60,274 nucleotides of DNA from Escherichia phage phiG7, in the sequence record OQ791410.1; one strand, written 5' to 3'. The notes beneath the pieces are model-generated. The model worked only from the letters and a program-made list of their open reading frames with translations. It ran no database searches and was not told the DNA's origin. Each line of letters opens with the position of its first letter. The stretch's first letter is position 1. The translations under genes and the position numbers were made by a program. Below are positions 1,802-58,624 of the stretch, piece after piece.

Positions 1802-2710
1802 ATGGCTATTTATATTGCAGAAAAAACACTTCAAGCAATCAATGACGGTGTGCAAAAAGATCAGGGTGGGACTTACCGTAAGTATCTTGGCGTAGTCATT
1901 CCCACAATTGAAGACGCATATCGCCCCGAAAGCGGAAACCGCAGCCACTTAGGCGCTTCCCTTATTGGACAACAATGTGCTCGCAAGCTGTTCTACGGAT
2001 ATCGCTGGGCTACGCGTAAAGAGTTCGATGGACGCCAGCTCCGCCTATTTAACCGCGGACATCTGGAAGAAGCGCGTTTCATTGCTATGCTTCTTGCGGC
2101 AGGTATGCAGGTCTACCAGCAGGATGAAAACGGACACCAGTTCCGCATCAGCGAAGCGGGTGGACACTTTGGCGGTTCCTGCGATGGTGTGGTTATAGGT
2201 TGTCCGGACGTTCAGCCTGGAATGCCTGTGCTTACTGAAATGAAGACCCACAACGATAAGTCTTTCAAGAAGCTGAAAGCTAAAGGTGTCAAAGAAGCTA
2301 AACCTGAGCACTATGTGCAGATGAACGTGTACATGCGAAAGCTTGGACTTGGTGCAGCGTTATATCTTGCTGTAAACAAGAACGATGATGAAGTTTACGC
2401 AGAAATTATTCCATTTGATCCTGTCACTGCGGATATGTATATTGATCGTGGTGTGCAGATTGCTATTGCTACGGATATTCCTGACCGTGCATTCAAAGAC
2501 TCTACCTTCTTCGAATGCAAATGGTGCGACCACTCCTCATTGTGCTGGCGTAAAACTATGCCGGAAGTAAACTGTCGCACATGTCAATTTCTTGAGCCAA
2601 AAGATGATGGAACATGGTATTGCAATTTCCATTCCGTTGCAGTAGATACGCAGGGTCAAAAAGTTGGTTGTCAAAACTATCAAGTAGCTAACTATTACGG
2701 GAAAGATTGA
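1802..2710 (+). CDS. PD-(D/E)xK exonuclease, Cas4/RecB-like with C-terminal Cys cluster
   Basis: Motif D...EMK (CDGVV...LTEMKTH) and four C-terminal cysteines (CKWCDHSSLC...CRTC). Confidence 0.55.
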   Translation: MAIYIAEKTLQAINDGVQKDQGGTYRKYLGVVIPTIEDAYRPESGNRSHLGASLIGQQCARKLFYGYRWATRKEFDGRQLRLFNRGHLEEARFIAMLLAAGMQVYQQDENGHQFRISEAGGHFGGSCDGVVIGCPDVQPGMPVLTEMKTHNDKSFKKLKAKGVKEAKPEHYVQMNVYMRKLGLGAALYLAVNKNDDEVYAEIIPFDPVTADMYIDRGVQIAIATDIPDRAFKDSTFFECKWCDHSSLCWRKTMPEVNCRTCQFLEPKDDGTWYCNFHSVAVDTQGQKVGCQNYQVANYYGKD

Positions 2711-2712
2711 TT

Positions 2713-4689
2713 ATGCAGCTCCGCGATTATCAACAGGAAGCAGTTTATAGCGTATTCCGCTATTTTGATGCTGAAAAGGGTAACGCGGGGAACCCTTTGA
2801 TCCTGTTACCAACAGGGACAGGAAAATCGCTCGTTATCGCGGGGTTCCTCGATCTGCTTTATAAATGGTATCCAAACCAGCGCGTAATGATGTTAACTCA
2901 CGTCAAAGAGTTAATTGCACAAAACTATGATAAATTAATGAAAGTCTGGCCGGAAGCGCCAGCAGGTATTTACAGCGCAGGTTTGAAGCGTAAAGAAGTT
3001 TATAATCTTATCACATTTGCGGGGATTGCATCTGTTGCTAAGCATCCTAAAAAGTTTGGCAAGGTTGATCTAATCTTTGTGGATGAAGCGCACCTTATTA
3101 GTCCGCGTGATGCAACAATGTATAAGAAGTTCTTTGCAGCATTGCGTGAAGTTAACCCGTATTTAAAAATTATCGGTCTTACCGCTACACCTTATCGACT
3201 GGGTTACGGCTCAATTGTTAAGGAAAACGAAGACGATGATGCTTTATTTGATAAAGTAACGTTTGATGCGACTACCCCTGAAGCCTTTAACTGGTTCCTG
3301 GAGCAAGGTTATTTGCTTCCGGTTGTGCCAAAGCGTACAAAGATGGAACTGGACCTCAATGGTGTAGGGAAACGCGGTGGTGAGTTTATTCAAAGTGAGC
3401 TGCAAAGTGCGGTGAACCGCGACGACGCAACACTCCGCGCACTTGAGGAAGCCATTGAATGTGGTGAAGACCGTCAAAGCTGGCTTATATTTTGTTCTGG
3501 TATTGAACACGCTAAAGATGCGTGTGATATGCTGAACGATATGGGTATTAGTTGCGGATGTATTCACTCAAAGCTTGATGCAAAAGAGCGTGATGAAATT
3601 ATTGAAAAATTCAAGCGTGGAGAGTTTCGAGCGCTGACGAACAACAACGTCTTAACCACAGGTTTCGACCATCCGATGCTTGATCTAATTATCATGCTTC
3701 GCCCCACTGCCTCGGCGGTGCTATGGGTTCAGATGTTGGGTCGCGGTACGCGTCCGGTATATGCGGAGGGCTTTGATCTTTCCACGCAGGAAGGTCGCTT
3801 GCAAGCTATTGCAGCAAGCCCTAAGCAGAACTGCCTTGTACTGGATTTCAGCGGTAATACGCGTCGTTTGGGCCCTATTAACGACCCTGTTAAACCCAAG
3901 CGACCGGGCGAAAAAGGTGCTGGTACTGCTCCGGTTAAAGAATGCGATGTGTGCGGGTCGTATAATCATGCATCTGCTCGCTATTGCGGTGGCTTTGCAC
4001 CAATTCCTATGGACAGCGTTACACAGGAACAAGTTCAACAATTATATTTGAAGGGATTCAGACTACGTGGAACGGATTATGTTAAAGAAGGATTTTGCGG
4101 TCATGAGTTTAAGTTCCAGACGAAACTTAAAAAGGCAGCAAGTACCGAAGCACTGATCAAACAGGACATTCCGGTAGTTGAAGACTTCAAAGTTACGCAT
4201 GTGACTTATGCGAAGCACACTAAACGCAATGACAGCTCCAAACCTCCAACAATGAAGGTGACTTATTATTGCGGTAGTAAAATATTCAGCGAATGGGTAG
4301 CTCTACTTCATGGTGACTGGGCAGGTCGTAAAGCGGTTGCATGGTGGAAGAAAAGGACGCATCTTCCTTTACCACAAACTATTGAAGAAGCTCTTGATGT
4401 TGCTGCAATGCTTAAAACACCGAAATACATCAAAGTTCATACCAATAAGAAATGGCCTGAGATATTGAACTATGATTATGATGGTACGTGTTTCGGTAAG
4501 TTTGAAGCACCGCAGGACGACGAAGCTATTCAAGTTAAAGTATACGGGCAGGATGGAACAACCGAAGGTCCAAGCTATAACGATGATGTGAGCTGGGATG
4601 ATATTGTTTCGCAGAATACGCAAGGTATAACGGTGAACAATGTGGTTAATCCTGTGCAAGTAGATGATCCGGATTACGTTCCGTTCTAA
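2713..4689 (+). CDS. SF2 DEAH-box DNA helicase with C-terminal zinc-ribbon extension
   Basis: Walker A PTGTGKS, DEAH box (FVDEAHL), LTATP motif; CDVCGSYNHASARYC downstream; ATG at 2713 preferred over TTG at 2707. Confidence 0.7.
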   Translation: MQLRDYQQEAVYSVFRYFDAEKGNAGNPLILLPTGTGKSLVIAGFLDLLYKWYPNQRVMMLTHVKELIAQNYDKLMKVWPEAPAGIYSAGLKRKEVYNLITFAGIASVAKHPKKFGKVDLIFVDEAHLISPRDATMYKKFFAALREVNPYLKIIGLTATPYRLGYGSIVKENEDDDALFDKVTFDATTPEAFNWFLEQGYLLPVVPKRTKMELDLNGVGKRGGEFIQSELQSAVNRDDATLRALEEAIECGEDRQSWLIFCSGIEHAKDACDMLNDMGISCGCIHSKLDAKERDEIIEKFKRGEFRALTNNNVLTTGFDHPMLDLIIMLRPTASAVLWVQMLGRGTRPVYAEGFDLSTQEGRLQAIAASPKQNCLVLDFSGNTRRLGPINDPVKPKRPGEKGAGTAPVKECDVCGSYNHASARYCGGFAPIPMDSVTQEQVQQLYLKGFRLRGTDYVKEGFCGHEFKFQTKLKKAASTEALIKQDIPVVEDFKVTHVTYAKHTKRNDSSKPPTMKVTYYCGSKIFSEWVALLHGDWAGRKAVAWWKKRTHLPLPQTIEEALDVAAMLKTPKYIKVHTNKKWPEILNYDYDGTCFGKFEAPQDDEAIQVKVYGQDGTTEGPSYNDDVSWDDIVSQNTQGITVNNVVNPVQVDDPDYVPF

Positions 4690-6242: not shown

Positions 6243-6950
6243 ATGAGTATTAATCAACAAGCTCCCGAGTCTCGTTCTAAAGAAAACGATATGTATTTAG
6301 ACGTGCATTCGGTATTCTCTACCATTCAGGGTGAAGGTCCATTCTGCGGTCAACCTGCGGTATTTGTGCGCCTTGCTGGATGTAACCTGCAATGCCCGGG
6401 CTGCGACACGGATTATACTGTTGGTCGTTCTCTTTATCACATTGTTGATATCATGCGCTTGATTGAAAGCCGCAAACTGGAGTCTGGCAATAACACCTCA
6501 CTTGTGGTTATTACTGGGGGTGAACCATTCCGTCAGCAAATTAACCCGTTTGTTGAACAACTGTTATCACGCGGGTATCTTGTGCAGATTGAAACGAATG
6601 GGTCTATGCCTTTACCTAAGAACTTTTCCCAGCTACCTGTCATTGTATGCAGTCCTAAGACTTCAAAAATTCATCCTACTGTGCTGTACCGAGCAAACGC
6701 ATTTAAATATGTGCTTAAAGCGTGCTGTGTAAACGTGGAAGACGGTTTACCGCTTCAGGCATTAGATCATCAAGCTACGCCATTTATCGCTAGACCTCCG
6801 AAGGGGTTCAAGGGTAAGATATATTTACAGCCAATGGACGAGCAGGATGAAGATCTTAACCACAGTAACATCCAAGCGGTTGTCCAAAGCTGTATGAAAC
6901 ACGGGTACACGTTGCAGCTTCAGGTTCACAAATATATCGGGGTGGAATAA
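6243..6950 (+). CDS. queE: 7-carboxy-7-deazaguanine synthase (radical SAM)
   Basis: Radical-SAM CxxxCxxC motif (GCNLQCPGCDT) and QGEG motif; RBS GGAGG. Confidence 0.75.
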   Translation: MSINQQAPESRSKENDMYLDVHSVFSTIQGEGPFCGQPAVFVRLAGCNLQCPGCDTDYTVGRSLYHIVDIMRLIESRKLESGNNTSLVVITGGEPFRQQINPFVEQLLSRGYLVQIETNGSMPLPKNFSQLPVIVCSPKTSKIHPTVLYRANAFKYVLKACCVNVEDGLPLQALDHQATPFIARPPKGFKGKIYLQPMDEQDEDLNHSNIQAVVQSCMKHGYTLQLQVHKYIGVE

Positions 6951-7249
6951 TGCGTGTATTAAGTCAGGTTGTGCATACTAAAGAAGTTGAATACTTTGGT
7001 AATAAGCTTGATGTCCCTGAATGGGTACGGTGGTTGGCTACGGATCAAGACGGTACAGTTTACGGATTCGAGTATGAGCCAACGTTGATGGACAGTCAAA
7101 CTAAATGGACATCATACTGGGAAGATGATAACTTTTGTGAAATGGCAGAAGTTGACCTTGAAGGTATGGATTATAAACAAACATTAGTGAAGGTGAAAAG
7201 AAATGATCACTTTGGAAGAAGCGAAACAGCATCAGGAAATGATCACTGA
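6950..7249 (+). CDS. hypothetical protein
   Basis: 99-aa ORF, ATGA-type coupling to queE. Confidence 0.35.
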   Translation: MRVLSQVVHTKEVEYFGNKLDVPEWVRWLATDQDGTVYGFEYEPTLMDSQTKWTSYWEDDNFCEMAEVDLEGMDYKQTLVKVKRNDHFGRSETASGNDH

Positions 7250-7415
7250 GCTGGTAGAAAAACTTAATTCTGCAATTGCTCACGCTACTATGCAGGGCGT
7301 GCATGTAGAATTAGATATTAATCACGTTAGTACAATCGGGGCACGCAATCATCCAATTGTGATGTCAAACGTAACAATCAACCCTTGTGATATTAAAGGT
7401 GTAGAAGATGAATGA
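7203..7415 (+). CDS. hypothetical small protein (paralogue of next ORF)
   Basis: RBS AAGGTGA; sequence pattern similar to 7408..7596 product. Confidence 0.35.
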   Translation: MITLEEAKQHQEMITELVEKLNSAIAHATMQGVHVELDINHVSTIGARNHPIVMSNVTINPCDIKGVEDE

Positions 7416-7596
7416 AGAAACTGTAATTCTTATGCAGAAAATTCAACGTTTGCAAGACGAGTTGAATGACGCTATCTGTCGTGCTGCATCCAAGAACATA
7501 CATTCGGAGCTTGAGATTCATAAGCGTCAGATGACATCTGATGATGTAGTTGAACAAGTAGTCGTTAACCTTAATATTAGCCTTAAAGGTTTCTAA
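7408..7596 (+). CDS. hypothetical small protein
   Basis: 62-aa ORF overlapping previous by 8 nt. Confidence 0.35.
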   Translation: MNEETVILMQKIQRLQDELNDAICRAASKNIHSELEIHKRQMTSDDVVEQVVVNLNISLKGF

Positions 7597-7597
7597 A

Positions 7598-8320
7598 ATG
7601 AATAAATTAGATAAACTGGTATTCCCTGTAAAAAATCATAACTCCGCCGTTGTCGTCCTGTCTGGCGGCCAGGACAGCGTAACCTGTTTGGGCCTTGCCC
7701 TTAATAACTATGATAAGGTCTACGCTATTGGTTTTGCATACGGTCAACGTCATAACATTGAGCTGGCTTGTGCTAATCAAATTTGTAAAGAGCACGATGT
7801 CCCATTTGTTGTCTTTGAATTACCTGCTTTGAAACAGATTGGCAATAGCACTTTAATCGGGAACGAAGGTGATGTTAACGAACATCACGAACAGCACAAC
7901 AACCTTCCGGCAAGCTTTGTGCCAAACCGTAATGCGCTTTTCCTGACTACTGCGCACGCCTACGCGCAGAAAGTTGGCGCCAGATATGTGGTTACAGGCG
8001 TGTGTGAAACAGACTATAGCGGTTATCCAGATTGCCGCCAGCAGTTTGTAGACCTGCTTGAAGCTACATTAAACGTTGGATATGAAACTGATATTCATTT
8101 TGTTACACCGCTTATGCGTTTAAACAAAGCGGAAACGTTTGAGCTGGCGGATAAGGTTGGCTTCTTAACCACAGTAATTGAACAGTCCCATACTTGCTAT
8201 AACGGCGTCCGTCGCACTCTGCATGACTGGGGATATGGCTGCGGGGAATGCCCTGCGTGCAAACTTCGTGCTAAAGGGTACAGTGAATTTATGGATAACG
8301 CTTACAGTAAACACGTTTGA
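7598..8320 (+). CDS. queC: 7-cyano-7-deazaguanine (preQ0) synthase
   Basis: PP-loop SGGQDS motif, VTGVCETDYSGYPDC block, C-terminal zinc site CYNG...CGECPAC. Confidence 0.85.
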   Translation: MNKLDKLVFPVKNHNSAVVVLSGGQDSVTCLGLALNNYDKVYAIGFAYGQRHNIELACANQICKEHDVPFVVFELPALKQIGNSTLIGNEGDVNEHHEQHNNLPASFVPNRNALFLTTAHAYAQKVGARYVVTGVCETDYSGYPDCRQQFVDLLEATLNVGYETDIHFVTPLMRLNKAETFELADKVGFLTTVIEQSHTCYNGVRRTLHDWGYGCGECPACKLRAKGYSEFMDNAYSKHV

Positions 8321-8440
8321 TCTTACCGCGAAAACCGCACCGCTAGCGCATTGTTTAGGGTGCGGGAACCCAACTATACTACTAAAGCTTTTAAACCCAA
8401 CAACCAGCGAATACCGCTGTTAAAACTGGAGAACAAAAGT

Positions 8441-8920
8441 ATGAAATTTATCGTCGCTTATTTGGCTGCAATTACATTCGTAAACCTGGGCTTTTCCTAC
8501 CTTCCAATGCTTAACACGCCTCTTGGCGTGGTCCCGATGATGGCTTTCTTTGTAGGTATTATCTTTGTTCTGCGTGATTACGCACAGCGTAACGCTGGCA
8601 AAGGCGTCATCCCTGCAATGATTGTAGGTTGTATCCTTAGCTGGGTGTTCGGAGATCCTGCTGTTGTAGTTGCATCCGTTGCATCCTTTGCTCTTAGCGA
8701 GTTTGCGGATTATGCGGTATACACGATTACTAAGAAGCCTTTCCATCAACGCGTATTTATCAGCTCTTTGGTAGCTGTACCGATTGACTCCATTGTGTTC
8801 TTAAGTATTATAGGTATTGTTAATCCGGGATCAATGGTAGCAATGAGCTTAAGTAAGTTCACAGCATCTGCCATCCTTTGGGTCGTTTACGAAGTTCATT
8901 CACGTACAGCGAGAGCGTAA
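8441..8920 (+). CDS. small multi-pass membrane protein, possibly YhhQ/VUT-family queuosine-precursor transporter-like
   Basis: Several hydrophobic helices; embedded in deazaguanine cluster; start at MKFIV (RBS GGAG) preferred over 8351. Confidence 0.4.
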   Translation: MKFIVAYLAAITFVNLGFSYLPMLNTPLGVVPMMAFFVGIIFVLRDYAQRNAGKGVIPAMIVGCILSWVFGDPAVVVASVASFALSEFADYAVYTITKKPFHQRVFISSLVAVPIDSIVFLSIIGIVNPGSMVAMSLSKFTASAILWVVYEVHSRTARA

Positions 8921-10704: not shown

Positions 10705-10911
10705 ATGTCAAGACAACTAATCTTAGAGACAGCATTCTACCAGCTTAAAGCAGGTACTGCGGATGCTTGTTCTGCAATACAGAATGATGCGCCTACAGAT
10801 GTCTTAAAGCAGCAGCTTATTGACGCTAAACATCGCGCGGACGAAGCATTTAATGAAGCGTGGCGTACTTTAGAACTAATTGATCAGTTTGGAGGACCGT
10901 TCCAAAAATGA
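10705..10911 (+). CDS. hypothetical small protein
   Basis: Start at MSRQL preferred; overlaps next gene start. Confidence 0.35.
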   Translation: MSRQLILETAFYQLKAGTADACSAIQNDAPTDVLKQQLIDAKHRADEAFNEAWRTLELIDQFGGPFQK

Positions 10912-11828
10912 ACGTTTTTATGGCAGCAGTTTACACGAACGGATATATGCCTGGACAGCAGCGTTATGAAAAACTGTCCGAGCATGAGAAAAATATCACG
11001 CGCAATCTGCCCCATATTTTGGAATCATATCACTACGTTGGGCGTCAGAAGTATGTTGATCAAATGCGTGCGGACGGGGCTAAAGTGTTTCTCGACTCCG
11101 GTGCATTCTCTGCGCACTCTTTGGGTGCGCACATTGATATTGTTGAATACTGCGAATACATTAAGCGCAACAAAGACATCCTTCGCGTAGAAGATGGTGC
11201 AGTAATGGCCTCGGTGCTTGATGGTATCGGTGATCCACTGCAAACCTACCGTAACCAGCTTGAAATGGAAGCACGCGGTGCTAAACCGTTACCGTGCTTT
11301 CACTTTGGTGAGGACTTCCGCTATCTTGAATATTACATGAAGAACTACGAATATATCACGATTGGTGGCATGGTAGGGCGTTCAACGGACACGCTTAAAA
11401 CTTGGCTGGACCGCATGTGGGACAAATACATTTGCGACGGTAGCGGTCGTCCTAAGATTAAGCTTCATGCATTTGGTATTACGTCCACAACCATTATGGA
11501 GCGTTACCCGTGGTATAGCTGTGACTCATCCTCCTGGATTCAAGCGGCAGCGTTTGGAAGTGTGGTTACTCCTCCGTGGGGCCCAATGCGCGTATCTGAT
11601 AAGTCACCAGACCGTCACCATTTTGGTAAGCATGTTTCAACGCTAACTGAAATTGAACAGGACGCTGTCCTTAAATACCTTGAGCAAAACGGTTTCACTT
11701 ACGAACGTTTATCAACAATCTATGAATCACGTGCCGCCTTCAACTTATGGGCGTATGGTGTAATTGCTGCAAACATTAACGCTACCCATGACGGCACATT
11801 CCGTGATCGTGTAATGGAGTTGTTCTGA
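10908..11828 (+). CDS. dpdA: DpdA-like DNA-guanine transglycosylase (TGT-fold)
   Basis: TGT-like blocks FLDSGAFS, ITIGGMVG, YSCDSSSW; location with queCDE/folE. Confidence 0.6.
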   Translation: MNVFMAAVYTNGYMPGQQRYEKLSEHEKNITRNLPHILESYHYVGRQKYVDQMRADGAKVFLDSGAFSAHSLGAHIDIVEYCEYIKRNKDILRVEDGAVMASVLDGIGDPLQTYRNQLEMEARGAKPLPCFHFGEDFRYLEYYMKNYEYITIGGMVGRSTDTLKTWLDRMWDKYICDGSGRPKIKLHAFGITSTTIMERYPWYSCDSSSWIQAAAFGSVVTPPWGPMRVSDKSPDRHHFGKHVSTLTEIEQDAVLKYLEQNGFTYERLSTIYESRAAFNLWAYGVIAANINATHDGTFRDRVMELF

Positions 11829-12055
11829 TGGCTAACTTAAGAAGACCAAAAGGTAAACGTAAATATACTCACACAGGCGTAAGAATTAATTATTACGGTG
11901 AAAACAGAGTAGTATTCCTCCACAAGACACCTAAGCAGTGGCAGGATCCGTCAGGTACATGGTTTAATGCACAAGGAAAACAAATGGGACTTTATGGATA
12001 CCCTCCTACTTGTGAATTAGATTTAACCACAATTAGAGCAATCGAGGATCGCTAA
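11828..12055 (+). CDS. hypothetical small protein
   Basis: 75-aa ORF, translationally coupled. Confidence 0.3.
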   Translation: MANLRRPKGKRKYTHTGVRINYYGENRVVFLHKTPKQWQDPSGTWFNAQGKQMGLYGYPPTCELDLTTIRAIEDR

Positions 12056-12291
12056 TGATACCAGTGTGTGAAGAATATATTACTTCCCAATCTAAAGCTG
12101 GGGGTAAAGCGGTAGGTCGTGTTGCTATCGCTAAGTTAACAAACGCGGGCTATGTACCAAAAGTTACCCCACCACCCCCTGAGCCCTGGATATGGGAGAA
12201 AAACGAGGGCCGTATTATGGCCATTACATCGTATATGGGACCTTTTAGATTAAAGATTGAGTATCTTGTAGACTTAGATGGGGACTCCTAA
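12055..12291 (+). CDS. hypothetical small protein
   Basis: 78-aa ORF, translationally coupled. Confidence 0.3.
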   Translation: MIPVCEEYITSQSKAGGKAVGRVAIAKLTNAGYVPKVTPPPPEPWIWEKNEGRIMAITSYMGPFRLKIEYLVDLDGDS

Positions 12292-13244
12292 TGCTTAACG
12301 CTCTTAAATTCGTTCAAGGCTCCGTTGCTAAAAAGGAACTGGTAGAAGGGCTTACCAGTTTTCTTATTCGTGACGGACAGGTACAAGGCTTTAACGGTGT
12401 TATTGCACTGGGCAGCCCTATTGAGCTGGATATTGATTGCAAGCCTGAAGCCGGTCCAATGATCAAGGCTATTTCAAACTGTGATGAAACAGTGCAGTTA
12501 ACAATGATGGCTAACGGTAAGCTGAATATTAAGTCAGGTCCGTTTCGTGTCGCTATACGCTGCATCGATAAAGAAACTCCGCATGTATTCCCTGAAGGGG
12601 ATCTGTATGAAATAGATGGTGCTCGCTTCGTTCATGGTGTGAAGTCAGTTGCTCCATTTGTAGGCTCGGATGCTTCCCGTCCGTGGGCTTGCGGTATTCT
12701 GATTAATAACGGTAGCCTGTTTGCTACAAATAACGTCACCATTGCGGAATACTGGTTTGGTAATCAGTTCCCTATCGATTGCATAATACCTTCCGTCGCA
12801 ATTAAAGAAATACTGCGTATTAAAGCTAACCCGACGCATATTCAGGTTAGTAAAAATAACGTAACGTTTCATTATCCGGAAGGTCGCTGGTTGCGGACAC
12901 AGCTTATTGATGCAGAGTGGCCCGATATACGTCGTATTTTAAATGTTCAATGTAATGCACATCCTGTTGATCCAGGTCTTTTCGAAGGCTTGCATAAAAT
13001 CAAACCTTTCGCTGAAGACAGACCTCGTGTATATATTGAAAACGGTCTAGCCCGTACTCACTACGATGATGCGGAAGGCGCAAGCTTCGTATTGCAGGAC
13101 CGGACAATTACGGGAGTGTACAATATTGATATCCTGCTATTGCTTGAAAATGTGGTTAAGACTGCGGACTTTAGTTTGTATCCGCAACCTTGCGCATTCT
13201 TTGGGGAAAATCTTCGCGGTGTATTAATTGGAGAACGTGTTTAA
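12291..13244 (+). CDS. DnaN-like DNA polymerase sliding clamp (beta clamp)
   Basis: Blocks resembling E. coli DnaN by eye: LIDAEWPDIRRIL vs LVDGRFPDYRRVL, IIPSVAIKEILRI vs VIVPRKGVIELMRM. Confidence 0.55.
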   Translation: MLNALKFVQGSVAKKELVEGLTSFLIRDGQVQGFNGVIALGSPIELDIDCKPEAGPMIKAISNCDETVQLTMMANGKLNIKSGPFRVAIRCIDKETPHVFPEGDLYEIDGARFVHGVKSVAPFVGSDASRPWACGILINNGSLFATNNVTIAEYWFGNQFPIDCIIPSVAIKEILRIKANPTHIQVSKNNVTFHYPEGRWLRTQLIDAEWPDIRRILNVQCNAHPVDPGLFEGLHKIKPFAEDRPRVYIENGLARTHYDDAEGASFVLQDRTITGVYNIDILLLLENVVKTADFSLYPQPCAFFGENLRGVLIGERV

Positions 13245-13836
13245 TGAAATTTTTGATTGACGGTCATCGTGACCGTATAGCTTTCCGTAAGACCCAATGG
13301 CCGGAAGGCGTTGTTGGACAATTATTAACACCATTGACCAGATATACTCGCGGTGAACCTGTATTTGCAATTGATAACGGCGCATACAGCGGGTTTCGTG
13401 AGAAAGAGTTTATTTCTCTTCTTAAACGAGAATATCATGTTAAAGAGCAATGCTTATTTGTCTGCGTTCCAGATAAAGTTGGGGATCATAAGGCTACTCT
13501 TGAAATGTGGGGCAATACAACCATCTAGCGGACGGTTGGAAGAAAGCATTTGTAGCCCAAGACGGTTGTGATAGTATTCCAAATGAAGCGGATTGTATCT
13601 TTATTGGCGGAACTACGGAGTTTAAAGATTCTGAACATGCTGCGGATATTGTTTTATGGGGATTGGAAAATAATAAGCATGTTCATATTGGACGTGTAAA
13701 CGGACCTGAGCGTTTTGCTAAATTTCACGTACTTGGCGCACATACTTGCGACGGTAGTGGTGTCAGTCGTTATGACCATATGATTCTAGCAATTAAAGAA
13801 GCAATGGAGCGGATTAAATGCGAACCGATGCTATAG
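13244..13836 (+). pseudogene. second, shorter DpdA/TGT-like paralogue interrupted by a frameshift at a G4 run (13509-13512)
   Basis: ORFs 13244..13528 and 13507..13836 in different frames; one extra G fuses them (..LEMW|GQYNHLAD..); blocks AIDNGAYSGF, IFIGGTTEF, HTCDGSGV parallel the DpdA gene. Confidence 0.5.
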
Positions 13837-15803
13837 GTTTCTTTTGGCAGGACTTACCGCCTGAGCCAAAAGCAAAGAAAGAAAAGATCAAACGTTTACC
13901 GCCGGAGCGGACTTGGGAGCGCCCGGATTATTTGCCTAACCTTGAGGAAGCGCGGAACTTCCAATACAACCTGTATACGCAGGACGAACTTATTCAAGCA
14001 TGGATTAACCGCGAACCGCTTGTATACGATATTGAATGTTATCCAAACTATTTCTTAATCGCGTTTCGCGGAGTACGGACTAAGAAAGTTGTCTACTTCG
14101 AAATGTATCACGGTTGTAGTTTGAATTGCTTGTTACTTAACTGGATAATGACAAACTTCCTTATCGTAAGCTTTAACGGTAACGGGTACGATATGCCAAT
14201 TGCTACGCTTGCGCTTAACGGCTGCTCTAATGCTCAGCTTAAAGATGCAACCGATAAGATAATCGTGGAAGACTGGCGTCCTTCCGATGTGTTGAAGAGT
14301 TACCGCCTTAAGCGTATGCAGAACGTTAACCACATTGATATTATGGAAGTTCTGCCTGGATCTGGTGGTTTGAAACAATATGGCGGACGTGTACATACTC
14401 GCCGTATGCAGGATTTACCGTTCAAGCCAAATACAATGTTGACGCAGGACCAGATGTTAATTGTACGCTGGTACTGTATTAACGACCTTGTACAGACAGA
14501 AGAATGTTTTATTGCATTACAAGAACCTTTGCACCTTCGTGAAATTATGTCGCAAGAATACGGTGTGGATCTGCGTTCACGTTCTGATGCGCAGATTGCA
14601 GAAGACGTAATTAAACACGAAATTCAAGCATTAACTGGTGTGCGTCCCCAGCGTCCCCAAGTTTATCCTGGAACAAAGTATGCGTATAACATACCGGACT
14701 TTATTCGTTTTCAAACACCTCTGATGAATAGTGTTTTGGATATTGTTCGGGACTGCCGTTTTGTTGTTAGCGATAACGGTGGCGTTAGCTTGCCCCCAGC
14801 GTTAACAGGTCTTGAAATCAAGATTGCGGACGGTGTCTACCGTATGGGTATTGGCGGTTTGCATAGCTCCGAAGAGTGTGCTGGTCACGGTAAAGAGCCT
14901 GGTATTAAGAAGCGGGACATTGACGTAACGTCTTATTACCCTTCAATTATTCTTAATCAGGGATTATACCCTGAGCAGTTGGGACCAGCGTTCCTTCGTG
15001 TTTATAAAAGTATTGTAGATCGCCGTATTGCAGCTAAGCACTCAGGGGACAAGAACACAGCCAACACGCTGAAGATCGTAATCAACGGATCGTTCGGTAA
15101 GTTAGGGTCTATGTGGTCCGTACTGTACGCGCCGCAATTATTGATACAGGTAACTATCACAGGGCAACTATCACTGTTAATGCTTATTGAAGCATTTGAG
15201 CTGAACGGTGTTAAAGTAATTTCAGCGAATACCGATGGTATTGTGGTTAAGTATCCCGACCACATGCAGGACTTCGTTGATAACATGATCAAGTGGTGGG
15301 AATCCGTCACAGGTTTTGAAATGGAATCCACTTATTATGACAAGCTATATAGCGCGAACGTTAACAACTATGTAGCTGTCAAAGAACCTGATGCAGAAGG
15401 TAACGTTGAAGTTAAGCGTAAGGGCTGGTTTGCCAAGACAGGACTTCAAAAGAACTGTACTGGTGAAATTATTATGGAAGCTGTATGTGAATGTTTGGCC
15501 CACGGTACGCCTGTTTCTCGTACTATACGCAATTGCAACGATATTAAAAAATTCATTATCCTACGTGCGGTGAAAGGTGGCGCGGTATGGAATGGCGAAT
15601 TTTTGGGTAAGGTTGTACGCTGGTATTTAAGCACCAATGAAGAAACCCCTGAAATAATCTATGCTAACTCGGGCAACCGTGTAGCTGGTAGCGCGGGAGG
15701 TGTCCCAATCATGACGCTACCGGATAAAATACCGGACGACATAGATTATGATGCTTATATAGCTAAAGCAGAGAAGTATCTCGAAGACATGGGATACGCC
15801 TAA
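13818..15803 (+). CDS. family B DNA polymerase with 3'-5' exonuclease domain
   Basis: Exo motifs YDIE, FNGNGYD, YCINDL; polymerase motifs DVTSYYPSII, KIVINGSFGKLG, NTDG. Confidence 0.75.
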   Translation: MRTDAIGFFWQDLPPEPKAKKEKIKRLPPERTWERPDYLPNLEEARNFQYNLYTQDELIQAWINREPLVYDIECYPNYFLIAFRGVRTKKVVYFEMYHGCSLNCLLLNWIMTNFLIVSFNGNGYDMPIATLALNGCSNAQLKDATDKIIVEDWRPSDVLKSYRLKRMQNVNHIDIMEVLPGSGGLKQYGGRVHTRRMQDLPFKPNTMLTQDQMLIVRWYCINDLVQTEECFIALQEPLHLREIMSQEYGVDLRSRSDAQIAEDVIKHEIQALTGVRPQRPQVYPGTKYAYNIPDFIRFQTPLMNSVLDIVRDCRFVVSDNGGVSLPPALTGLEIKIADGVYRMGIGGLHSSEECAGHGKEPGIKKRDIDVTSYYPSIILNQGLYPEQLGPAFLRVYKSIVDRRIAAKHSGDKNTANTLKIVINGSFGKLGSMWSVLYAPQLLIQVTITGQLSLLMLIEAFELNGVKVISANTDGIVVKYPDHMQDFVDNMIKWWESVTGFEMESTYYDKLYSANVNNYVAVKEPDAEGNVEVKRKGWFAKTGLQKNCTGEIIMEAVCECLAHGTPVSRTIRNCNDIKKFIILRAVKGGAVWNGEFLGKVVRWYLSTNEETPEIIYANSGNRVAGSAGGVPIMTLPDKIPDDIDYDAYIAKAEKYLEDMGYA

Positions 15804-17595: not shown

Positions 17596-17867
17596 CTAAA
17601 CAGTCAGGTTAGTACCGTTCTGCCCCTGAATGGTCTGAAGAGTACCGTTGTTAATGGCTTGCAGAATTGCGTTGGTGTCAACAGAAGCTTGAACTTCCAC
17701 CGGACCAGCGAAGTTACCGCGACCACCCCAACCACCATTGCCACCCCAACCGTTACCGATCCAGGAACCAATCAAACCACCGATCGCACCACCAATACCA
17801 GCCGCACCAGCTTCACCGCCGAAACCGTGCCACCGAGATTAGTAGGTAAAAGAGTCATGTCAGACAT
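17596..17867 (-). pseudogene. glycine-zipper, microcin-like small protein (possible double-glycine leader MSDMTLLPTNLGG), reading frame broken after the GG motif
   Basis: RBS GGAG 8 nt before ATG at 17867; frame 1 stops after 31 aa; the adjacent frame is open for 81 codons rich in GxxxG (AGAAGIGGAIGGLIGSWIGNGWGG); one extra G in ACGG would fuse leader and core. Confidence 0.4.
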
Positions 17868-17993
17868 AGGAAAATCTCCATATATGGATTTGTTAAGCGG
17901 ATGTAACCAACTGGTTACGAAGTAAAGCATACCCATTAACATGCTTTTTACAATGATCCATATGTAAAGATTTTGTAAATTAGGATTGACAGC

Positions 17994-18022
17994 CAATAAA
18001 AAGCGCGCCCGGAGACGCGCTG
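17994..18022 (-). terminator. rho-independent terminator after tail fibre gene (minus strand)
   Basis: AGCGCG-8 nt loop-CGCGCT followed on minus strand by TTTTATT. Confidence 0.65.
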
Positions 18023-58381: not shown

Positions 58382-58393
58382 ACGGGGGGAATA

Positions 58394-58624
58394 ATGGCTG
58401 TAAGAAAGATCAAAGCGACAGATGCGCTTCCTGGAATGATTTACCGTGACTTTTACGGTAACGAAATGAAAGTAGAAAGTATCTGTCATTACGAGCAGGA
58501 TAATACGATAGCCCTTACCTTTGCTTTCGGGCGCCCAGGAGATGGTTTCCGTCTAACCTTCCAAAATGAAGAAGAGATTGAAATCGTGATCCCTGAAGAA
58601 CCGGAAGAATCTATTCCTGCATAA
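58394..58624 (+). CDS. hypothetical small protein
   Basis: 76-aa ORF. Confidence 0.35.
   Translation: MAVRKIKATDALPGMIYRDFYGNEMKVESICHYEQDNTIALTFAFGRPGDGFRLTFQNEEEIEIVIPEEPEESIPA

Follow-up and report, generated by a model that had tools for sequence, protein, structure and literature searches.

In the 60,274-bp genome of Escherichia phage phiG7, a Seuratvirus (Queuovirinae) whose whole sequence is the window analyzed here, two short overlapping open reading frames (ORFs) lie between the genes for a sliding clamp and a family B DNA polymerase. ORF1 (phiG7_20, 94 aa) occupies 13244..13528 on the plus strand, from an ATG at 13244 to a TAG at 13526-13528, and ORF2 (phiG7_21, 109 aa) occupies 13507..13836 on the same strand in the -1 frame, from a GTG at 13507 to a TAG at 13834-13836. 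Are these two genes, or one gene that has been broken, and if one, what did it encode and how did the break arise? In the records of phiG7 and of a second isolate, SHIN8, the two appear as "hypothetical proteins"; they are one broken or mis-called gene. As a lesion or an error in an accessory gene, the frameshift itself is ordinary. The main interest lies in the family to which this gene belongs, a very large and uncharacterised group of ~200-aa phage proteins with what appears to be the active-site layout of tRNA-guanine transglycosylase (TGT) and of the related enzyme DpdA, which exchanges guanine for 7-deazaguanine in DNA; the layout is carried on a bare TIM barrel.

One gene, split by a single base

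ORF1 and ORF2 overlap by 22 nt around a run of four G at 13509..13512 (plus strand), the site of the 1-nt deletion, where phiG7 reads ATG TGG GGC AAT. Adding one G to this run yields a single 197-aa product with the junction peptide LEMWGQYNHLADGWK. ORF1 contributes residues 1-90 of this mini TGT-like protein (hereafter the mini protein) followed by four out-of-frame residues (NTTI), and ORF2 contributes residues 90-197. The initial annotation had proposed this fusion through a GGGGG at 13509-13512, and its coordinates proved exact. The fused phiG7 protein exists unbroken on 22 public contigs as an intact allele, P0125, with 100% identity. The cluster at 90% identity holds twelve distinct intact alleles on ~46 phage-sized contigs. 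One of the intact alleles, P0123, is protein-identical to the fused SHIN8 reading, and P0001, 96% identical, occupies the identical slot between the clamp gene and polB in a 59.5-kb contig (L003). A search of 5.8 billion proteins returned 565 relatives of the fused protein, nearly all of 188-215 aa and unbroken. PHROG 15826 (function not assigned) aligns without interruption to residues 21-178 of the fused protein, across the junction (E = 2.4e-25), and a homologue in another phage contig (L018) matches the same PHROG at E = 1.7e-22. The match across the junction and the unbroken homologues are far beyond chance. Because intact orthologues exist, comparison of the sequences identifies ORF1 and ORF2 as one gene split by a 1-nt frameshift, with the fused reading as the ancestral protein. 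The earlier view that the fused reading is the real protein was therefore correct in this ancestral sense, and comparison with relatives shows that the ORFs are not separate genes.

At the break site L003 reads TGG GCG CAA, where phiG7 and SHIN8 both read TGG G-G CAA. The junction falls at residue 89/90, in the middle of helix alpha4; in an alignment of 87 family members residue 89 is aromatic without exception and residue 90 varies. Across the alleles residue 90 is Gly, Ala or Glu, which fits GGG, GCG and GAG, so the Gly alleles probably read TGG GGG CAA with a run of five G. The ancestral run was thus probably G5, later contracted to G4, since the Gly alleles need TGG GGN CAA at this point. 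When the DNA of the twin alleles P0125 and P0123 was sought, IMG/VR and E. coli genomes and plasmids gave no match and the JGI metagenomes gave two chance matches.

The gene is absent from 31 of 33 related phage records; SHIN8 is the only other carrier and has the identical break. In the records that lack it, the clamp gene directly abuts the polymerase gene. The mini gene is an exact start-codon-to-start-codon cassette of ~574 bp, with GGAG-N9-ATG and the tetramer AATG at each of its borders (13230-13246 and 13805-13820), so that its loss or gain leaves the ribosome-binding site of the downstream gene intact. Being absent from all related cultured phages except SHIN8, it is clearly dispensable. 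Between phiG7 and SHIN8 the mini gene is 98.3% identical while dpdA, clamp and polB are only 90.7-92.5% identical, and the pattern seems to be one of mosaicism, with the cassette exchanged between backbones.

Fold, putative active site and relatives of the mini family

An AlphaFold model of an intact orthologue, built on the 87-sequence alignment, has a pLDDT (predicted local distance difference test) of 97 and forms a minimal (beta/alpha)8 TIM barrel of eight beta/alpha units. In fold searches with this model, TGT, archaeal TGT and bacterial DpdA rank near the top. Foldseek returns transaldolase and TGT side by side near 1e-5, and searches of viral models repeatedly return phage "queuine tRNA-ribosyltransferases", mixed with GDPD domains. 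ORF1 carries strands beta1-beta4 of the barrel and ORF2 strands beta5-beta8. The invariant residues of the family are all predicted to lie at the C-terminal ends of strands beta3 to beta8. On the ORF1 side these include D44 (86/87; codon 13373..13375, plus strand), in the motif IDNGAY at the end of beta3, and D77 (codon 13472..13474, plus strand), in the invariant P76-D77 pair (87/87) after beta4. By position, D44 would match Asp95, the general acid/base of bacterial DpdA, and D63 in phage DpdA1, and D77 would match the base-recognising Asp130 and D105. On the ORF2 side are Q106 (87/87), G122-G123 (87/87; codons 13606..13611, plus strand) in the motif FIGGT after beta6, H148 (86/87), R151 (87/87) and D170 (87/87; codon 13750..13752, plus strand) in the motif CDGSG at the end of beta8. 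G122-G123 would correspond to the Gly-Gly loop G206/G207 of bacterial DpdA, and D170 to its nucleophile Asp256 and to D206 of DpdA1.

How close is this layout to that of the known enzymes? In bacterial DpdA the active site comprises Asp95, Asp130, His181/Gly182, Gly206/Gly207 and Asp256, with Phe99 four residues past the first Asp (PMC10164549). Both the Gly-Gly loop after beta6 and an aromatic residue (F or Y48) four positions after the first Asp are present in 87 of 87 mini sequences. In a model of DpdA1, D63, D105, H132, G153-G154, H187 and D206 sit on strands that match those of the mini invariant residues; D44, D77 and D170 align to D63, D105 and D206, a match that is positional and model-based. 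Alignment of the mini profile with a widened DpdA1 profile by hhalign covered 152 columns with a score of 34.9 (P = 2.5e-4, probability 43%); none of 31 controls (thirty profiles with shuffled columns and one reversed) exceeded 22.1. Six blocks are collinear between the mini family and DpdA1: IDNGAF/LDSGAF, PDvVGD/LDGIGD, QDG/HxG, FIGGT/TLGGM, VHvGR/VHGFG and CDGSG/CDSSS. Of the motif pairs first noticed by eye, DNGAYS/DSGAFS, FIGGT/TIGGM and TCDGSG/SCDSSS were recovered by the profile-profile comparison; LEMW/LEME was not aligned and looks coincidental. The proposal of a TGT/DpdA-like paralogue is thus supported as remote homology, by the profile score, the TIM-barrel fold and the placement of invariant residues on the catalytic strands.

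The mini protein also differs from these enzymes in what it lacks. The structural zinc site (CxCxxC...H) is conserved in DpdA and TGT (PMC10164549). In the 87 mini sequences this site and Ins8 are absent, with no Cys cluster and C70 as the only Cys conserved in more than half of the members. The chain ends 27 residues past D170 and the nucleic-acid-binding insertions are missing, so that, unlike bacterial DpdA (PDB 7UI4), Z. mobilis TGT and archaeal TGT, the mini protein is without Ins1, Ins2, Ins3, Ins8 and the zinc site. We therefore regard it as a stripped-down TGT-like catalytic barrel and do not assign it to any named DpdA subfamily. The two ORFs would then derive from one accessory gene, part of a 7-deazaguanine/replication module, for a minimal TIM-barrel enzyme of ~197 aa that kept the catalytic core of TGT/DpdA (Asp residues for acid/base catalysis on beta3, for base binding on beta4 and as the nucleophile on beta8, and the Gly-Gly loop on beta6) and lost the zinc site together with every nucleic-acid-binding insertion. 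Its likely role would be that of a base-exchange (transglycosylase-type) enzyme acting beside DpdA1 or in its place.

Among the named proteins, the nearest comparison is with phage DpdA1, the DNA-guanine transglycosylase of phages CAjan and 9g. The phiG7 copy is a full-length gene of 306 aa at 10908..11828 (plus strand) whose protein is 99.7% identical to CAjan DpdA, and deletion of the CAjan gene abolishes dPreQ0 in CAjan DNA (PMC6884629). Like DpdA1, the mini protein is a TIM barrel encoded in the same gene module, often adjacently, and the two share ordered motifs: DxGAF on beta3, xD on beta4, H/Q-x-G on beta5, GG on beta6, H on beta7 and CD on beta8. Unlike DpdA1, it has only 197 aa, with a shorter N-terminus and without the ~100-aa C-terminal extension. 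The relationship is detectable solely by profile-profile comparison, there being no full-length alignment to 9g or CAjan DpdA, and the PHROGs differ (15826 for the mini family, 887 and 7068 for DpdA1). The phage and archaeal-virus subfamilies DpdA3 and DpdA4 offer another parallel, as short, highly diverged TGT-like proteins encoded beside 7-deazaguanine genes that are recognized only by HHpred (PMC10516641). A structure model of phiST DpdA3 is among the BFVD matches of the mini protein (TM score 0.57), and one mini-family member reaches DUF6610, the DpdA4 family, at E = 0.048. No link at the BLAST level was found between the mini protein and Campylobacter, Cellulophaga or haloviral genomes. 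In the literature searched the mini family is not placed in any named DpdA subfamily, and the classification into bDpdA and DpdA1-4 omits it. "Singleton DpdA" genes occur in phages without preQ0 genes, such as Mycobacterium phage Orion, whose DNA is unmodified, and Salmonella phage 7-11 (PMC6884629). Some mini members are likewise TGT-like genes in phages without Que genes nearby, and those of actinophages bear the SEA-PHAGES label of the singletons, "DpdA-like tRNA-guanine transglycosylase". The singleton proteins are, however, longer and have no tblastn match from the mini protein.

Several results weigh against a TGT relationship. Pyruvate kinase and transaldolase barrels score equal to TGT in the fold searches, and sequence support for the homology is weak, at an hhalign probability of 43%. 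Neither the fused protein nor the 87-member profile has a match in Pfam (PF01702), NCBIfam (DpdA NF041059), PADLOC DpdA or the PDB by HMMER, and the only stray hidden Markov model (HMM) matches of the family are to RPB5 (E = 0.02) and to EAL and DUF6610 (E > 0.008). The catalytic activity of the family is itself inferred. A check against TGT/DpdA profile HMMs had been suggested as decisive, and the fused product indeed finds no match there. But phiG7 DpdA1, run as a positive control, has no Pfam or PDB match either and reaches two DpdA models only at E = 0.002 and E = 0.001; since a bona fide DpdA1 also fails, such tests cannot refute the relationship.

Could the mini protein instead be a TIM-barrel enzyme functionally unrelated to TGT/DpdA, aldolase-like or phosphodiesterase-like, with the motif likeness due to convergence? 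This question is independent of the cause of the break. The missing HMMER, Pfam and NCBIfam matches would suit such an enzyme, as would the many members in phages without Que genes nearby, and K128 (84/87) lies near beta6, the location of the Schiff-base lysine in some class I aldolases. We nonetheless consider it unlikely. Against it stand the collinearity of the six motif blocks with DpdA1, at a score far above that of the controls, the strand-for-strand agreement of the three Asp, the Gly-Gly loop and the aromatic residue with the active site of TGT (PMC10164549), and the repeated embedding of the gene in deazaguanine modules.

This embedding is seen across a large family (1770 representatives at 50% identity). 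In 12 contexts from diverged Queuovirinae-like phages, with DpdA1 identities of 50-69%, the mini gene lies within a queE-queC-queD-folE-dpdA-clamp-polymerase module, where its place varies among three positions: after dpdA, after the clamp gene, or after a family A polymerase. The homologue in L018, a non-Queuovirinae, temperate-type phage contig that bears an integrase, is the last gene of a queD-queC-queE-mini operon (6418-8594); no DpdA1 homologue was found within 8 kb of this operon or anywhere in the 16.6-kb sequence. Arthrobacter phage Sonali (L013) encodes a mini protein (gp81, 2447-3064) and, 2.4 kb apart, a 296-aa queuine tRNA-ribosyltransferase-like protein (gp87, from 5434). Other members occur in phages without Que genes nearby, amid recombination and methylase genes. 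The link of the family to 7-deazaguanine modification is therefore frequent, not obligate. A scan of genome contigs found only three loci, all in Planctomycetes metagenome-assembled genomes (MAGs). In one of these, a prophage region of a Pirellulaceae MAG (L025, 8001-8568), the mini copy is also frameshifted, ~7 codons downstream of the phiG7 site; the shift lies in a TTGGCC-G-TTGGCC repeat and is either an independent lesion or an assembly error. A mechanism shared with phiG7 is ruled out, as the L025 shift runs in the other, +1, direction.

If active, the mini family would define the minimal machinery for base exchange, and it might explain differences in modification level or motif between phages. 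A broader and, to us, rather doubtful reading joins the family to the fate of the phiG7 gene: mini proteins would be an unrecognized, minimal sixth type of DpdA-like transglycosylase that replaces or complements DpdA1, and the intact gene would be counter-selected on laboratory hosts. Replacement of DpdA could apply where the queD-queC-queE-mini operon suggests it. In the replication module, the protein could complement DpdA1, for example with a different target motif, or with nucleotides or single-stranded or replicating DNA as its substrate. Counter-selection is proposed because the only two cultured E. coli phage carriers are broken and none of the ~46 uncultured contigs is. The natural pairs of broken and intact alleles in otherwise similar Seuratviruses offer a ready-made test.

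Origin of the break

What, then, happened to the phiG7 copy? A real and recent deletion, with loss of function in a dispensable gene, is the explanation that we favor, although we hold it only about evenly balanced against all others combined; both the reality of the deletion and the loss of function are what we infer. A genuine one-base deletion in the G run, probably from G5 to G4, would stop translation of ORF1 five codons later. It would cut the protein inside helix alpha4 and divide the catalytic residues between two frames, D44 and D77 in one, Q106, G122-G123, H148, R151 and D170 in the other, and neither half could be active alone. As no recoding signal is present, the mini gene is most likely inactive in phiG7. 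The identical lesion in a second isolate with a separate record, SHIN8, speaks for a real deletion. So does the state of the rest of the genome: other isolated 1-nt indels between phiG7 and CAjan or SHIN8 are intergenic or at gene boundaries, except one in a Gly-rich gene, and among ~25 other G/C runs of at least 5, compared with CAjan and SHIN8 where aligned, length differs only at two intergenic sites (~58384 and ~58645). The polB protein is 98.6% identical to that of CAjan at 92.5% DNA identity, and such high protein identity despite DNA divergence indicates that the assembly is accurate. An assembly pervaded by homopolymer errors is rejected, as all 1-nt indels relative to relatives, besides those in the mini and Gly-rich genes, are non-coding.

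Other observations tell against a real deletion. Both broken alleles have protein-identical intact twins, P0125 for phiG7 and P0123 for SHIN8. The phiG7 and SHIN8 mini genes differ at 10 sites, of which 8 are synonymous and 2 non-synonymous (P = 1e-4 against neutrality), and both non-synonymous differences also occur in intact alleles. A search of the mini gene for decay found no further stop or indel, and all catalytic codons are intact. The lesion must therefore be very recent and recurrent, or not real, or tolerated; an old, decaying pseudogene is rejected because the substitution pattern is not neutral. Finally, the break is present in 2 of 2 isolate records and in 0 of ~46 contigs (Fisher p = 9e-4), and its restriction to isolate records also fits an artefact of isolate sequencing.

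Such an artefact, in which one G was missed in both GenBank records and the phage itself carries GGGGG and an unbroken 197-aa gene, is less probable in our view than a real deletion, yet it is the most serious competitor, and the initial annotation had already raised it. Besides accounting for the intact twins and the confinement of the break to isolates, it would explain why the substitution pattern is one of purifying selection in both halves, the four differences downstream of the break all being synonymous only in the ORF2 frame. The G/A/E variation at codon 90, by implying a G5 run in the Gly alleles, suits it too. The run also closes with GGC; in CAjan the first G of this motif bears preQ0, which disturbs the nanopore signal (PMC7544227). 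But the identical error would be needed in two separate records, and no other coding homopolymer is affected in spite of the ~25 G/C runs and more than 150 A/T runs of at least 5. The sole other broken gene lost its G outside any run, accuracy at the level of substitutions is high, and the SHIN8 preprint names no sequencing platform.

It is improbable, though conceivable, that the frameshifted allele still functions, either because the half-barrels are made separately and assemble or through a low-level, unprogrammed -1 slip from GGC to GGG. In the split-product version, ribosomes would terminate at the ORF1 stop and reinitiate on ORF2 at the GTG at 13507, which the stop follows by 20 nt, and this in-frame GTG does overlap the end of ORF1. 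Under a single origin of the break, the differences accumulated since (8 synonymous, 2 non-synonymous) would imply continued selection on both halves, and the contrast in identity between the gene and its flanks suggests one shared allele on two backbones. Intact twins, however, account for the substitution pattern without any selection after the break. The split is in the middle of a helix, not in a loop, and separates the catalytic residues; the GTG has no Shine-Dalgarno-like sequence other than a weak AAGG 13 nt before it; and for the slip there is neither a slippery site nor a stimulator. Our estimates for a real deletion with loss, a sequencing error, and a tolerated or split gene leave a small remainder between them.

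Programmed recoding, by a -1 ribosomal frameshift or by transcriptional slippage as a regulatory split, is very improbable and largely refuted: the 22-nt overlap would allow a -1 shift at TGG GGC that recreates the ancestral protein exactly, but the overlap holds no X XXY YYZ heptamer, the downstream RNA fold is no better than that of shuffled sequence (z = -0.96), G4 is too short for polymerase slippage, and the arrangement is not conserved, at least 12 distinct close alleles and hundreds of homologues being unbroken. The -1 shift put forward in the initial annotation therefore lacks support. No internal promoter or terminator was found in the split gene.

Neighbouring genes and a second frameshifted gene

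The order of genes around the mini gene in phiG7 is folE, dpdA, a small ORF, the sliding-clamp gene, the split mini gene and the family B polymerase gene. The clamp gene (12291..13244, plus strand) ends with a stop codon that overlaps the ATG of the mini gene (TAATG). The polymerase gene (13818..15803, plus strand) begins 19 nt before the mini gene ends, with a GGAG-N9-ATG of its own. An extra 78-aa ORF at 12055-12291, between a 75-aa ORF and the clamp gene, is missing from CAjan, SHIN8 and L003, and looks like another small gene cassette. Elsewhere in the genome, the intergenic run at 58384-58389, just upstream of an ATG at 58394, has six G in phiG7, five in CAjan and four in SHIN8.

The Gly-rich gene (17596-17996, minus strand) is the orthologue of CAjan AJT60506 (235 aa). 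It is frameshifted after MSDMTLLPTNLGG by the loss of a single G at ~17828, where CAjan and L003 have GGCGACGG and phiG7 has GGC-ACGG. It had been supposed that this break, like that of the mini gene, lies in a G run; it lies outside any such run, and the lost G belongs to a GA motif, which in CAjan is a target for preQ0. A change from GAG to TAG at 17596-17598 then ends the homology.

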